Part shown: in pieces, positions 3,583-47,051 of the stretch
Numbering within the stretch: the stretch's first letter is position 1
How the letters are laid out: every line of letters starts with the position of its first letter
DNA from: Candidatus Terrybacteria bacterium RIFCSPHIGHO2_01_FULL_48_17
GTDB taxonomy: Bacteria; Patescibacteriota; Minisyncoccia; Terrybacterales; 2-01-FULL-58-14
Assembly (NCBI GenBank): GCA_001822835.1
Contig: MHSS01000013.1
Location: 10,321 to 74,320 of the forward strand
DNA length: 64,000 nt
Reading direction: 5' to 3'
Notes under the pieces: model-generated
Seen by the model: only the letters and a program-made list of their open reading frames with translations
What the model was told of the DNA's origin: nothing
Databases searched by the model: none
Program-made: the position numbers and the translations under genes

Positions 3583-4848
3583 ATGGCGGGAAGGTTCGTT
3601 ATTAATGGGGGAAAACCGCTTTACGGCACCGTCGGGGTGGCGGGTGCTAAAAATGCTGTTTTAAAACTTATCGCAGCATGTCTTTTGACGAAAGAGTCAT
3701 GCACGCTCCATAATATTCCCGATATTTCCGACGTTTCCCAAATGCTTGCGATTTTAGAAAGCATGGGAGTGCGCGTTGAACGTCCCCAGAAAGGAACTGT
3801 TTCTATCGCTGCCGATAGGGTTGACCCCAAAAATATCGCTACCTCTCTCGTCTCAAAGCTGCGTGCATCCGTGGTGCTTTTGGGGCCGTTGCTTGTTCGT
3901 TTTGGCGAAATTCGCTTGCCTTATCCTGGGGGAGATCGTATTGGCGCACGACCACTTGATGCGCATCGCAGCATATTTGAACAATTTGGTGCAGAAATTA
4001 TTTCTTGGGATACGCTTTTGCATCTTCGTATCCCAAGAAACGGTCTTAGGCCCGGCCGGATTGTCCTTCCCGAATTTTCCGTGACTGCAACGGAAAACGC
4101 GATGCTTACTGCTTCGCTGTTGCCGGGTAAAACAATGCTTCATATCGCAGCCGCAGAACCGCACGTGCAAGATCTTGCCGCCTTGCTTGTTCGTATGGGG
4201 ATTAATATTCAGGGGGCAGGAACTCATGATCTTATCATTTTCGGGGAAAAAACGCTTTCGGGCGCTACGCACACGACCATCCCCGATCCTCTGGATGCAG
4301 CTACCTTCCTTATTTTTGGTGCCGCAACGCGCGGAGAGATAGAAATATGTGGCGCGCGCGAGGATCATCTTCTTTTAGTTCTTGAGAAGCTTAAAGAAAT
4401 GGGGGTTGGGCTTAAGGTTGATGGATCCTCTATTTCCGTTTCCGGAAAAGGGCAGCTTCGCGCAACTCGTCGCATTCAAGCAATGCCCTATCCAGGAATT
4501 CCCTCAGATCTTCAGGCGTTATTTGCGGTTCTTGCCACCCAAGCAGAAGGAGAAACCCAAATACACGATCCTCTTTTTGAAGGGCGCTTCCTCTACGTCA
4601 ATGAGCTTAAGCGCATGGGGGCGGCGGCAGAACAACATAATTCCCACGAGGCCCTTATCCGTGGCGTTACCAAGCTTTCTGGAATGAGGATCTCCTCATT
4701 TGATATTCGCGCCGGAGCTGCTATGGTACTTGCGGGGCTTATTGCTGGCGGTCAGACCATTATTGAAGGGGTAGAGCATATCGACCGCGGTTATGAGGAT
4801 CTAGATGGAAGGTTGAGAAGCTTGGGGGCAGATATTATCCGACAATGA
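3583..4848 (+). CDS. murA: UDP-N-acetylglucosamine 1-carboxyvinyltransferase (MurA)
   Basis: MAGRFVINGGKPLYGTVGVAGAKNAVLKLIAA.. matches the MurA N-terminus. The fold (EPSP synthase-like) runs the whole length. An alternative upstream ATG sits at 3553. Confidence 0.9.
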   Translation: MAGRFVINGGKPLYGTVGVAGAKNAVLKLIAACLLTKESCTLHNIPDISDVSQMLAILESMGVRVERPQKGTVSIAADRVDPKNIATSLVSKLRASVVLLGPLLVRFGEIRLPYPGGDRIGARPLDAHRSIFEQFGAEIISWDTLLHLRIPRNGLRPGRIVLPEFSVTATENAMLTASLLPGKTMLHIAAAEPHVQDLAALLVRMGINIQGAGTHDLIIFGEKTLSGATHTTIPDPLDAATFLIFGAATRGEIEICGAREDHLLLVLEKLKEMGVGLKVDGSSISVSGKGQLRATRRIQAMPYPGIPSDLQALFAVLATQAEGETQIHDPLFEGRFLYVNELKRMGAAAEQHNSHEALIRGVTKLSGMRISSFDIRAGAAMVLAGLIAGGQTIIEGVEHIDRGYEDLDGRLRSLGADIIRQ

Positions 4849-31540: not shown

Positions 31541-33340
31541 GAAAGAAGGAATCCAAAAGAGAGGCGAAAACGGCTGTGGCCTGCGAAGGGATGAGGGCTA
31601 CGGTTCCCACGGTCTATGTTTTGCGGAGCCTGCGATGCGCGGAAGGACGAGCGGGGTGGAATAGCTCGTTTCTGGGGCGCCATCCTATCGCAATCTCCGT
31701 CCCCAAGCCGCTGGGCCAAAGAGGAAGAGCCGCGCCTCTCAAGGGCGATGGGATTGCCTAACACAATCCTTCGCTTCTCTTTTGGGTTTCTTATAGAGCC
31801 CCCTTGACAATGATGGTCGAGTTGTGCTAAGAGGAGTATACGATTTTAAAGATTAAATTGAGGTTCCTTCGGTTCTCTCCCTGCATTTATCATTCATCAT
31901 TAAGAATTATCACAAGACGAATGCAGAGAGAGGGCCGGATGGGCTCTCTTCTGATGAAATCCAGACGGCTGATCACCGTCTGGTCGGGTCCCAACCGTTG
32001 TTGCGCCCAAAAGGGGCATGCCCCGCCATCTTGCGGGGAGGAGCTATCCAAATCGCCCCTCGTCGGGTTTGCCTGGCGAGTATAAGCGAAGAGGAAGAGT
32101 TCTGCGGCAGCGGGGAGGCTGTGCCCGTTTATCGCCCTGTTGGCGATGGCGGGATCCCGCCCCGACGCTCTTGGGGACGCTCAAGAGAAGAAGGGGAAAT
32201 GCCTGATTGATCTGTCAAACAGTGGGGGCAAGCCGGACTTTCTTTCTGTCCCCCCTAAAGCAGCAGGGAGCGCAAGCGCTTGTGCGCAACGCTCGTCACG
32301 GCCCGGCGGTGGTCGAGAAGTTCTCTGCTGCAATTTAAGCACCTTTTCAAAAGAACGGATCCGAGGGAAACGATAACCTCGGAGCCCTCTCCCTGAACCA
32401 GTTTCATTTTCTGAACTCTGTACCCTGATGTCTGTACCCTGTTAACTGATTCAGAGAGAGGGACGCCCGTCTCTGCCGGTCTGGCTGGCACGTGTGGTGC
32501 CGGAAATGCTGGCTCCCGCCCGGCTCGATTGGAGCCGAGGGGCCTCTACGGGCGACCTCGCGCGATGGCGGCTAACCCGAGCCCTTTCCCGGGGCAAGCC
32601 CCGTCCGCGGCGGGGTGTGCAGGTTTCGGGCGATGCCGCAAAAAAGGTAGAATCATCTGAGGAGCGTGGAACCATTAAGGTTCCCGGGAAACTTGTGGGA
32701 AAGCGCTCCTCGGCCGGTCATAGTTCTTTGTTAGGGGATAAGCCCATTCGAGCCGATAAGTTCGGCTCTCCCTCCCTACATTTTTTTTCGAAAGCTTACG
32801 TGAAGAGCAGAAAGCGCCAACTATCTTTTTTTAACGCTTCTCTCTTATCACTTATTACTTTAAAGAATGTAGAGAGGGGGAGGATCTCTTTGCCGCAAGC
32901 TTCGGCGGAGAGGGTAGGGCCCGGGAATTCCTGCCCGAGTGCTACGAAAACGGCGCTCGAAAGCCTCGACCCCGCTTAATGAGGGTCGCTCCAGGGGGCT
33001 GCACAAACGCGGTCACTAAGTGCGGCGGTCAGTTACCGTCGCCGGAGCGGTCCAGCTCTTATTGCCGGAGCATCATAATCTCCGGCACCCCTCTCTGCAT
33101 TTATCATTCTTCATTTGTCATTGATAAATACAGAGAGGGGTTCTCACAACCCCATATTTTTACCCAGGGTCCGCCTGTAAAAAGGTGGCAAATGCCTAAA
33201 GGGCCCTAATGGTGTTTATACGCCCCGGTGTTGGCTCCAAGAGTCGATGCCGGGTCTTTCTTTATATACGAACTATGGGGGTCCGACCCCCATAGTATTT
33301 TTAGAAAAGCCTGCCGAAGAGTTTATCTGGGCTGGCTGAA
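31541..33340. other. 1.8-kb ORF-poor, GC-rich non-coding region with three related hairpins (CTCTCTG/CAGAGAG stems)
   Basis: No ORF over 161 aa on either strand, and none with recognisable motifs. Hairpins at 31866-31925, 32450-32474 and 33085-33137 (19-bp stem). Two hairpin loops begin CATTTATCATTC(A/T)TCATT. Confidence 0.4.
33274..33303 (+). terminator. Rho-independent terminator closing the ORF-poor region
   Basis: CTATGGGGGTCcgaCCCCCATAG tattttta. Confidence 0.55.
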
Positions 33341-45206: not shown

Positions 45207-45524
45207 ATGGTAGATAAAAGAAGATATCGTGACCGTGCTGAATATAACAAACAGGCAGTTGCTAAACGAAGACGGAAATTGAAATTGCTTGCGATTGAAT
45301 ATCTCGGCGGAAAGTGTTTGGCATGTGGCTATACGCGATGCGCCGCTGCATTTGATATTCATCATCGCAATCCGCAAAAAAAAGAATTTGGTCTTTCGAC
45401 GAAAGGATTGACACGCAGTTGGGCACGTATTAAAAATGAGTTAGAGAAATGCATTTTGCTCTGCGCGAATTGTCATCGTGAGATACATGTAGGATTTCGT
45501 AATCTTCCCAAACATTTACATTAA
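45207..45524 (+). CDS. HNH endonuclease (YajD-like), ends 10 nt before the intron-containing tRNA-Asn
   Basis: CLACGY...FDIHHRNP...LLCANCHREIH: an HNH beta-beta-alpha metal finger flanked by two Cys pairs. Confidence 0.7.
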   Translation: MVDKRRYRDRAEYNKQAVAKRRRKLKLLAIEYLGGKCLACGYTRCAAAFDIHHRNPQKKEFGLSTKGLTRSWARIKNELEKCILLCANCHREIHVGFRNLPKHLH

Positions 45525-45534
45525 CAATTTGTAT

Positions 45535-45848
45535 TCCGGGGTAGCTCAATGGTAGAGCAGCTCCCTGTCTTAAGGCAGCTTTTGGGGGAAACCCCAAATG
45601 AAAAATTTCGGGATAACGGTGAACCCTTCGATCGGCATAGGACAAGCGTACCTAACGGTAAAGGCAACACCGTGGGAACCCCCGCCACCCCTTTTTATTT
45701 TATGGAAGGCGGGGGGCGCCGTAGAGACTAGATACCGAAACGCCTACCGTCGATTTTTTCGATCATGGCGATGATATAGTCCACCCTCGCAAGAAACTGC
45801 GAGATTCGTGTAAGGAGTTGGTTGTCGGTTCGAATCCGACCCCCGGAG
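45535..45848 (+). tRNA. tRNA-Asn (anticodon GUU) interrupted by a 242-nt group I intron in the anticodon loop
   Basis: 5' exon TCCGGGGTAGCTCAATGGTAGAGCAGCTCCCTGT; 3' exon TAAGGAGTTGGTTGTCGGTTCGAATCCGACCCCCGGAG. The acceptor TCCGGGG pairs with CCCCGGA. Spliced loop is CTGTTAA, U1 and discriminator G73 as in tRNA-Asn. Confidence 0.8.
45569..45810 (+). ncRNA. Group I self-splicing intron (no internal ORF)
   Basis: The 5' exon ends in U paired to G of the internal guide GCAG (45574-45577). The intron ends in G. Conserved-core elements are present: R-like CGTAGAGACTAGATACCG and S-like GATGATATAGTCCACC. Confidence 0.75.
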
Positions 45849-45851
45849 CAG
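45835..45851 (+). repeat. 17-bp direct repeat, copy 1 (3' end of tRNA-Asn): TCCGACCCCCGGAGCAG
   Basis: Identical 17-mer recurs at 46876-46892. Confidence 0.6.
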
Positions 45852-46130
45852 ATCTCGTGATTTAGGGTCAGAAACCATAAATCGTGAGAATGGAGACGTT
45901 TTGCGCGCCGCGGCAGAGACGCCGTAGCAAGCCATCGTTCGTGAGAGGACCTATTCCCTTTGGCGTAACCTTGATGCGCGGACCCTCCACCACGACGGCC
46001 TAGCGTATTGATTCTCTGGCGCCGTCATGTCCCTGTGTATAATCTTCGCGCTTGCCAGCTTCGCTTGCTCGTGCTACGAAGGAGATACAAACGCCTCACC
46101 CAGCCGAAAGGTCCGGTGAGGTCTTGTTAT

Positions 46131-46745
46131 ATGCAAACCGTCCTCTTTATCGACGGGAGAAATTTCCTCGGCAAGCTCAAGCAGGTATTTAAGGCAGCAC
46201 ACCGGCCGATGCCCTCATGGGCCACGTTTGACTTCCGCGGTCTGGTCGATCACGTCCTTAAAGGCGTTGCGGTAGACGAGCGGAGGATCTATTTCGCGCG
46301 CCTTGTCTTTCATCCCCAGACCGCCGATAAATCCCGCGCGCTTATCGAGGAGCGCAGACACCTAAAACGCCACCTTGAATCGACCGGATTTACATATATC
46401 GTGAGCGGGCATGTGCGCGCCAATGTCGTGAAGGACGCGTACGGGCATGAGGCCCTCGCGTTTAAGGAAAAGGGTGTCGATACCAAGATTGTCACGGATC
46501 TCGTGGTGGCTGCGTGCGATCGCAAGGTGAAAACCGCCATCATCGCAAGCTCCGATTCCGATTTGCAGCCCGCGGTCAAGGAGCTTAAGTTGCGCCGTAT
46601 AGAGCAGATCTACCTTGGCTTTGAGATCGAACCCAACAAAGGGCTCACCTACACGACCGACCGCACCATCCTCATCCGGAACGCAGAAGTACTACAATTT
46701 ATGGGCACGTCTACGTTGCCCTTCGAATCCAAAGAAGCTGCCTAG
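46131..46745 (+). CDS. NYN-domain (LabA/PIN-like) ribonuclease family protein
   Basis: LFIDGRNF (DG-N motif), VSGHV, ASSDSD acidic motif typical of NYN/LabA. Start at ATG 46131. Confidence 0.7.
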   Translation: MQTVLFIDGRNFLGKLKQVFKAAHRPMPSWATFDFRGLVDHVLKGVAVDERRIYFARLVFHPQTADKSRALIEERRHLKRHLESTGFTYIVSGHVRANVVKDAYGHEALAFKEKGVDTKIVTDLVVAACDRKVKTAIIASSDSDLQPAVKELKLRRIEQIYLGFEIEPNKGLTYTTDRTILIRNAEVLQFMGTSTLPFESKEAA

Positions 46746-46875
46746 CGGCGACAACGAAACGGACACGGTGAACACCGTGAACAGTAGTGAACACTTCTAC
46801 CAGGTATGGACCAAGGCGAAGGGGTTTGTGACGAGCATCTGACAAGAGGTTCCCTGGCCGGGCAGGCTAACTTCG

Positions 46876-46892
46876 TCCGACCCCCGGAGCAG
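46876..46892 (+). repeat. 17-bp direct repeat, copy 2: TCCGACCCCCGGAGCAG
   Basis: Exact match to the tRNA-Asn 3' end. Confidence 0.6.
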
Positions 46893-47051
46893 TATCGGGC
46901 ATCGAGCATATGAATACTCGATGCGTCCTTTTTATAGGGTACCGACCAATTCTTGGATTCGATCATTTTTTCAAACGGGTATCTCCGTAATCCTAAATCG
47001 AGCGCCAATACGATGAGCGCTCGATTTGGCTCGATACGGTACAATACTTCT

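Follow-up and report, generated by a model that had tools for sequence, protein, structure and literature searches.

The 3′ end of a tRNA-Asn gene in Candidatus Terrybacteria is probably an integration hotspot that has been used repeatedly, with a 17-nt direct repeat of that end bracketing the remnant of one such event. We describe this locus in a 64,000-nt stretch (hereafter, the window) of a Candidatus Terrybacteria genome from the Rifle aquifer. There, the tRNA end and a displaced copy of its last nucleotides flank a small island of foreign composition, Y, whose one gene encodes a predicted ribonuclease of the NYN/LabA-like type; an element with a large serine recombinase (LSR), X, recombines at the tRNA end in sibling strains, and the displaced copy is joined to a relic of another LSR element, Z. 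Mobile elements of the Patescibacteria (candidate phyla radiation, CPR), whose genomes are small, uncultured and metagenome-assembled, are poorly charted. The locus offers a clean natural case of a CPR element with a serine recombinase whose attB/attL/attR triad lies at a tRNA end; it documents live serine-recombinase integration in Patescibacteria, and it holds two layers that appear to be older: a gene-sized cargo island and a recombinase fossil. This layering suggests that accretion and decay at tRNA ends also shape the reduced genomes of Patescibacteria.

A tRNA-end repeat brackets an insert of foreign composition

The exact 17-mer TCCGACCCCCGGAGCAG occurs twice in the window, at 45835-45851 and 46876-46892, both on the plus strand, and no further copy with up to two mismatches is present on either strand of the window. 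The left copy comprises the 3′ end of the functional tRNA and 3 nt beyond it: it starts with the last base of the T-loop, continues through the 3′ half of the T-stem and the 3′ acceptor strand to the discriminator G45848 (together tRNA positions of roughly 60-73) and ends with the trailer CAG. The right copy is a displaced tRNA 3′ end, upstream of which there is no tRNA similarity beyond the 17-mer (p = 0.72 against shuffles); we rejected the idea that it is the stump of a second tRNA-Asn because this upstream similarity is missing. The left junction in the form seen in the window (J1, the tRNA joined to ATCTCGTG) is crossed by seven distinct, independent metagenome contigs, and the right junction is present in at least eight, from assemblies drawn from JGI, ENA and Logan. 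Recurrence in independent contigs rules out an assembly artefact. An earlier note, made from the letters of this DNA, had claimed that an exact 17-bp repeat of the tRNA 3′ end brackets an insert of about 1 kb, and the two copies, against a chance expectation of 0 in 100 shuffles, bear this out.

The bracketed segment Y (45852-46875, plus strand) is a 1,024-bp cargo island without a recombinase. Its GC content is 0.551 compared with 0.480 for the window, and the GC content at third codon positions (GC3) of its single real gene, the NYN gene, is 0.683, ranking first among the 56 genes of the window (z = 5.0). A GC3 value five standard deviations above the mean marks this gene as a recent acquisition, and we also count toward a foreign origin that the insert forms a complete expression unit with a leader that is conserved at distant NYN loci. 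The genes neighbouring the insert, as far as scanned, are ordinary. Open frames in the two non-coding flanks of the insert have no Pfam matches, tblastn with four LSR proteins finds no match anywhere in the window, the insert and the window regions scanned contain neither a tyrosine integrase nor a remnant of one, and the left end of the insert has no detectable similarity to a recombinase relic. The composition values thus confirm the earlier description of the insert as GC-rich DNA with nothing but a NYN gene, and the Pfam scan of the flanks together with the LSR tblastn confirms that no integrase lies within it.

Short sequence features mark both ends of the insert. At its start, 45853-45889 on the plus strand, is a predicted trailer hairpin with a 12-bp RNA stem that includes two G-U pairs; its fold z-score is weak. 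Near its right end, Tandem Repeats Finder reports three phased GTGAACA repeats (46768-46793, plus strand) with spacings of 9 and 10 nt, located 22 nt past the NYN stop codon and 83-108 nt to the left of the right repeat. These are three of only seven copies of GTGAACA in the window, and they may be protein-binding iterons, such as arm-type or directionality-factor sites.

The tRNA end is a live attachment site for a serine-recombinase element

About 40 contigs of the same population, gathered by exact-protein look-up of the NYN gene and both of its neighbours, were compared to the window by blastn. In addition to the window allele, they contain two other junctions, J2, in which the tRNA is joined to TGTCGGAC, and J3, in which GCGGGGGAGCAG is joined to ATCTCGTG. 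Four J2 contigs (L109, L110, L113 and L114) match the window at 100% identity for stretches of up to 3,645 bp and leave it exactly after 45851, to continue with TGTCGGACATCGAGCATACAAATGCTCGAT, a hairpin and a minus-strand open reading frame (ORF) that is the zinc-ribbon-to-C-terminus half of an LSR. J3 is represented by a single contig, L002, which is 100% identical to the window over 4,901 bp from 45845 rightward and carries different DNA leftward. On its minus strand, this different DNA codes for a peptide with homology to the tail that naturally forms the C terminus of the LSR in contig L117. When the arms of L002 and L109 are joined through GGAGCAG, as in a reconstructed attP, one continuous ORF results, which ends with ARCPTLLPRWNEFRTIRWEELFPYPSVALQQITQLLALPI and a stop codon and whose tail aligns in frame with the L117 C terminus (16/34 identical, E = 2e-7).

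Because a single in-frame ORF spans the two arms, J2 and J3 are attL and attR of one element, X. Both share with the window the 7-bp core GGAGCAG (45845-45851), which spans the last part of the acceptor stem, the discriminator and three further bases, and the window is thus the X-free allele, with the left repeat as a live attB. This attB consists of the left copy plus the first ~20 nt of the insert and is unoccupied in the window; the trailer hairpin constitutes its B′ side, and inverted half-sites can be read from the sequence at 45836-45842 (CCGACCC) and 45865-45871 (GGGTCAG). The junctions show directly that X, in co-occurring strains, sits exactly between the tRNA end and Y, and alleles with and without X are both found in JGI sample 3300002502.

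Only the zinc-ribbon-to-C-terminus half of the X recombinase is assembled, and a full-length version was not found in the protein database, which holds only a 224-aa called fragment. Relatives reveal the complete LSR architecture: the protein of L121 comprises PF00239 (Resolvase), PF07508 (Recombinase) and PF13408 (zinc ribbon), and the homologues P0127, P0146 and P0151 have the same full architecture. Genes for such recombinases lie, inverted in the same way, directly against tRNA-Asn in L016 and L118, which come from two other organisms, and against tmRNA (L121) and tRNA-Gln (L124, a frameshift-rich long-read contig that we used only to show this target). No long direct repeats bound the L118 and L121 elements.

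The attP of these elements lies within the recombinase ORF (L109 3646-4393 with L002 1361-1462 for X; 2560-2674 in L117; 10930-11029 in L118), and integration swaps the last ~35 LSR codons for codons that run antisense through the tRNA end (LLRGSDSNRQPT). A T-loop-like palindrome, GGTTCGAACC, recurs in the C-terminal coding region of the LSRs, at the LGSN and FEP motifs. The X end in L002 (1-1455) is a mosaic of a GC-rich part (0.61) followed by low-GC DNA (0.43) with small ORFs; the GC-rich part contains, on the minus strand, a partial tRNA-Lys(TTT) (about 398-457), as well as a tyrosine integrase fragment that is cut off near 950 and comprises the SAM-like N-terminal region.

The right copy is fused to a recombinase relic

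Directly after the right copy lies a 39-nt relic of the 3′ end of an LSR gene (46893-46931, minus strand), the P′ arm of the older element Z. The stretch 46876-46931 is identical to the attL of X at 49/56 nt (88%, E = 6e-16), including 32 of the 39 nt outside the 17-mer, and the matching stretch in X is the last coding part of its recombinase. In the recombinase frame, the relic reads KGRIEYSYARCPILLRG, as compared with KGQIEHLYARCPTLLRG in X and ..SKSPILLRG in L016. The match to the attL of X and the kept reading frame together identify the right copy as a tRNA end fused to an LSR fossil.

This result changes the meaning of a palindrome that the earlier note had listed just past the right repeat. 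The palindrome, CATCGAG..CTCGATG at 46900-46923, is present as described, but it is not a separate feature; it is the P′-arm and terminator hairpin of the fossil (46899-46924), and five T residues follow at 46929-46933. The hairpin and T-run probably now act as a transcription terminator, although a simple terminator scan passes over the hairpin because its loop is longer than 8 nt.

A proposed history of the locus and its alternatives

Starting from the observed repeat, the foreign composition of the insert, the X triad and the Z relic, we infer the entry of Y by site-specific recombination and the order of events as follows. Z, an element of a Patescibacteria LSR family, would have integrated at the tRNA-Asn end and later decayed, leaving no more than the initial 39 nt of the arm next to the tRNA, namely the hairpin and the last recombinase codons. 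The foreign segment Y would then have recombined into the tRNA end, bringing its own copy of the 17-nt tRNA end and a cargo of a promoter, the conserved leader hairpin and the intact NYN/LabA-like RNase gene. Because Y would have supplied its own last 17 nt, the tRNA would have stayed intact, and the old end with its Z relic would have been shifted 1 kb downstream. Y has no recombinase and may either have lost one or always have moved in trans, as a cis-mobilizable element (CIME) does. Some members of the population now have X integrated where the tRNA meets Y. The earlier note had interpreted the two copies as the attL/attR footprint of an integration. This interpretation survives in part: the insert is alien, the tRNA end recombines in sibling strains and the right copy is joined to a recombinase fragment, but the copies are not the two plain halves of one simple event. 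Moreover, the recombinase seen at the site is a serine recombinase with a shared core of 7 bp (GGAGCAG), and the 17-bp identity needs a separate explanation.

Several findings weigh against this history. In the LSR elements X, L118 and L121, element and target have no more than a short core in common and no long direct repeats are left, and with such short cores a 17-nt identity is not a typical product of the X-type LSR family. Z is represented by no more than 39 nt, the main part of X is not assembled, and L002 is mosaic in composition on its left side. NYN homologues elsewhere lie mostly in ordinary chromosomal contexts with no flanking repeats, and neither a single-sequence nor a profile search found any in the viral contigs of IMG/VR, which indicates that the gene is not habitual mobile cargo. 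Neither the predicted empty site (GGTTCGAATCCGACCCCCGGAGCAG joined to TATCGGGCATCG, that is, the tRNA joined directly to TATCGGG...) nor the predicted circle junction (CTAACTTCGTCCGACCCCCGGAGCAG joined to ATCTCGTG) occurs in the about 40 population contigs, and a search of GTDB representatives with RpoD returned a best match of 64% identity and thus no close relative. Among the other searches, an exact-match metagenome scan with the tRNA end found only two unrelated organisms, the left junction was not found in viral contigs, and exact-protein look-ups of both neighbour genes led to the same population only.

The main rival account, which we consider unlikely, does without a site-specific recombinase for Y. 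Linear donor DNA with the 3′ part of tRNA-Asn, the native trailer and the NYN gene of another Patescibacterium would have entered by homology-facilitated illegitimate recombination, with a crossover in the conserved body of the tRNA and the other end joined at T-loop position 60 of the resident gene, duplicating the last 17 nt. An insert with no recombinase remnant fits such an origin, as does the RNA-type trailer hairpin at its start, which a native tRNA downstream region would have. The 17-nt identity has a sharp left edge with no tRNA similarity beyond it, the unrelated Patescibacteria L015 and L016 have the same 25 nt at their tRNA-Asn 3′ ends, which could serve as a homology anchor, and in a Doudnabacteria genome (L012) a tRNA cluster is followed, after 178 nt, by a NYN gene without repeats. 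However, the site is demonstrably a recombinase target in the population, the T-loop holds the edge of the repeat, which is also the pattern of classical islands and of those with serine recombinases (PMC3146451), and the phased GTGAACA motifs near the right end resemble recombination accessory sites; an illegitimate join that left both an intact tRNA and an intact old end would be a coincidence. Quite improbable in our judgement is a native NYN gene, in which case the second 17-mer and its hairpin would stem from imprecise excision or another rearrangement by a resident serine-recombinase element, or from a degraded second tRNA-Asn that had once harboured an element of this type. It would account for a right copy that looks like an attL (a tRNA end with a recombinase arm) and not like an attR, and for the wide distribution of NYN genes in Patescibacteria, with more than 1,500 homologues. 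The 5-sigma GC3 deviation of the gene in its genome and the missing trace of a second tRNA upstream of the right copy both speak against it, and neither excision nor tRNA decay explains the 1 kb of foreign DNA between the copies.

The NYN segment could also be distal cargo of an X-like element, with the window derived from it by deletion between the GGAGCAG of attL and an internal GGAGCAG. The end points of such a deletion would share a 7-bp microhomology, the insert and the X recombinase region are close in GC content (0.551 and 0.568), the right flank in the window is 88% identical to the arm of X at attL, and ~56 nt of an attP built from the end of the insert, the 17-mer and the hairpin would look like the tRNA end. 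The DNA left of the internal GGAGCAG in L002 nevertheless encodes a recombinase tail, in frame and homologous to that of L117, which makes this junction the true attR of X and places the NYN segment outside X; in addition, the minus strand read through the 17-mer into the NYN tail has no similarity to LSR tails. The attR arm largely refutes a deletion derivative of an X-plus-NYN element, and we regard it as very improbable. The prospect of a chance repeat or a mis-assembly is virtually nil, given that shuffles yield no such repeat and that both junctions recur in many independent JGI, ENA and Logan assemblies. Finally, and in our estimate distinctly unlikely, the NYN island may act as an 'adaptor' that has no recombinase but contributes the B′ half of the LSR site, with the island co-adapted to the LSR elements and itself moved or retained in cis by accretion. 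If this were true, the swap of the ~35-residue tail would be a built-in switch between integrated and free forms, possibly one that sets directionality.

Relation to known integrative islands

The locus belongs to a known kind, the recombinase-less islands at tRNA and tmRNA ends. The ssrA-specific islands of Dehalococcoides, which use a serine recombinase of the DsiB/CcrB type, occur in tandem; 15 have no integration module, and such islands were proposed to be cis-mobilizable elements (PMC3146451). As at our locus, the target is the 3′ end of the gene for a small structured RNA, a serine recombinase gene of ~500-540 aa lies on the reverse strand directly against attL, and a short direct repeat of the RNA 3′ end starts from the T-loop (20 nt, compared with 17 nt here). 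Tandem accretion, the presence of islands without a module and polymorphism of the site between co-existing strains are further shared traits. In contrast to the Dehalococcoides islands, the target here is tRNA-Asn (tRNA-Gln and tmRNA in relatives) and the host a member of the Patescibacteria, the island is tiny (1 kb, one gene), and the core of X, the one element with both junctions recovered, is only 7 bp. The attP of X, furthermore, lies inside the recombinase ORF, with integration exchanging the last ~35 codons, and a small second recombinase of the DsiA/CcrA-like type was not seen here.

CIMEs of the streptococcal families of integrative and conjugative elements and integrative and mobilizable elements, reviewed in PMC5704250, likewise carry att-type repeats at a tRNA or other hotspot, are devoid of integrase and transfer genes and lie beside autonomous elements at the same site. 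Y has no recombination or transfer genes, and its left end overlaps a working attB. Unlike in CIMEs, X has only the 7-bp core in common with the left site, and mobilization of Y in trans is putative. Islands and prophages with tyrosine integrases, with attL and attR of the P4 or lambda type, offer a third parallel: the 17-bp block covers the tRNA 3′ end, the tRNA is rebuilt by the copy that the element brings, the composition is foreign, and close to one end there are phased short repeats that look like arm-type or Xis sites. Only serine recombinases, however, were seen at the site described here.

The NYN gene and its conserved leader

The cargo gene (46131-46745, plus strand) is intact and encodes a 204-aa predicted ribonuclease with a PIN-like fold. 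The protein matches Pfam PF01936 (E = 1.8e-12; 48.4 bits, cut-off 24.2) and retains 42/42 residues that are invariant in the family among 26 sequences, including D8, E113, D117, D142 and D144. A search of the PDB by sequence for solved NYN relatives gave no match. An AlphaFold model (predicted local distance difference test score, pLDDT, 88.3) adopts a PIN-like NYN fold, with the best Foldseek matches in the PDB being the LabA-like structure 2qip (E = 3.3e-6) and the NYN domain of MARF1, 5yaa. The protein thus resembles the PF01936 NYN/LabA-like proteins (2qip, 5yaa) in its above-threshold Pfam match, its conserved acidic residues and its predicted fold; in contrast to the known members, it belongs to a subfamily of ~196 aa that is specific to Patescibacteria and has an additional β-hairpin (model residues ~88-114). 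Most likely, the gene has its own promoter and encodes an RNase that depends on metal ions. PADLOC gives only a weak domain-level match to HEC-09 (E = 8.5e-9), which we do not count as evidence for a role in defence.

The 5′ leader of the NYN mRNA contains a 30-nt hairpin with a GNRA loop, GCCUCACC-CAGCCGAAAGGUCC-GGUGAGGU (46093-46122, plus strand). Across NYN loci in distant Patescibacteria, the hairpin is 85-90% identical at the nucleotide level, which exceeds the conservation of the coding sequence. All 11 of 11 pairs are intact in six sequences, and three pairs are compensatory, with the covariation including C-G, G-C and A-U at one position. No Rfam family matches the hairpin, which is a candidate for a new cis-regulatory or mRNA-stabilizing motif and is perhaps the target of the NYN RNase itself. 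Copies occur at L122 (236-265), L012 (about 3951-3980) and L123 (1-33), and also at L010 and L011.

We also considered and rejected the possibility that the NYN gene is a recurrent mobile cassette, as the homologue loci L010-L014 and L123 have varied, ordinary neighbourhoods and no flanking repeats. At one homologue locus, L122, flanking repeats are found: this closest homologue (69% aa identity, from the same aquifer) lies between 143-nt direct repeats (31-173 and 886-1026) that are 85% identical, in a 1.1-kb contig that ends just outside them. These repeats have no Rfam match and no similarity to the window.

The tRNA-Asn gene and its group I intron

The tRNA-Asn(GTT) gene is split. Exon 1 (45535-45568, plus strand; positions 1-35) ends with ...CCCTGT, the final U being what a group I 5′ splice site demands. 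A 242-nt group I intron (45569-45810, plus strand) interrupts the anticodon loop at position 35/36 and ends in G; it matches the full length of Rfam model RF00028 with 46.5 bits (E = 2.6e-10), below the gathering score of 50. Exon 2 (45811-45848, plus strand) covers positions 36-73, does not encode the CCA and is followed by a trailer starting with CAG. When 45535-45568 is joined to 45811-45848, ARAGORN reports a canonical tRNA-Asn(gtt), whereas neither ARAGORN nor Rfam at the gathering threshold detects a tRNA in the unspliced locus, because the intron interrupts the gene. We recovered the tRNA by a permissive Rfam scan followed by manual splicing. The locus therefore carries a caution for annotation: an intron can hide a tRNA from standard tools, and an apparent 'palindrome' can be a recombinase relic. 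Group I introns at the identical site, 35/36, are known from tRNA-Asn genes of Patescibacteria (PMC13011429).

The order rpoD then tRNA-Asn is kept in other lineages of Patescibacteria, and this conserved synteny identifies the tRNA as resident. In the genome described here, a DUF6498 gene lies to the right of this pair, past the insert and the hairpin. Instances of the pair include L018 (4134-4207), L028 (9358-9430) and L037 (2231-2305); two of these three contigs stop at or just past the tRNA, a hint that the DNA is variable at those loci as well.

Ten nucleotides before the tRNA ends a 105-aa ORF (45207-45524, plus strand) with a weak match to HNH endonucleases (E = 0.0018) and the lowest GC content (0.403) and GC3 (0.302) among the 56 genes of the window. 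HNH genes occur within some tRNA-Asn introns (PMC13011429), and this ORF may encode a homing endonuclease that is free-standing but linked to the intron. The second compositional outlier of the window is a 161-aa ORF at 32494-32979 (plus strand) with no Pfam match, a GC content of 0.568 and a GC3 of 0.574; it may be another foreign gene.

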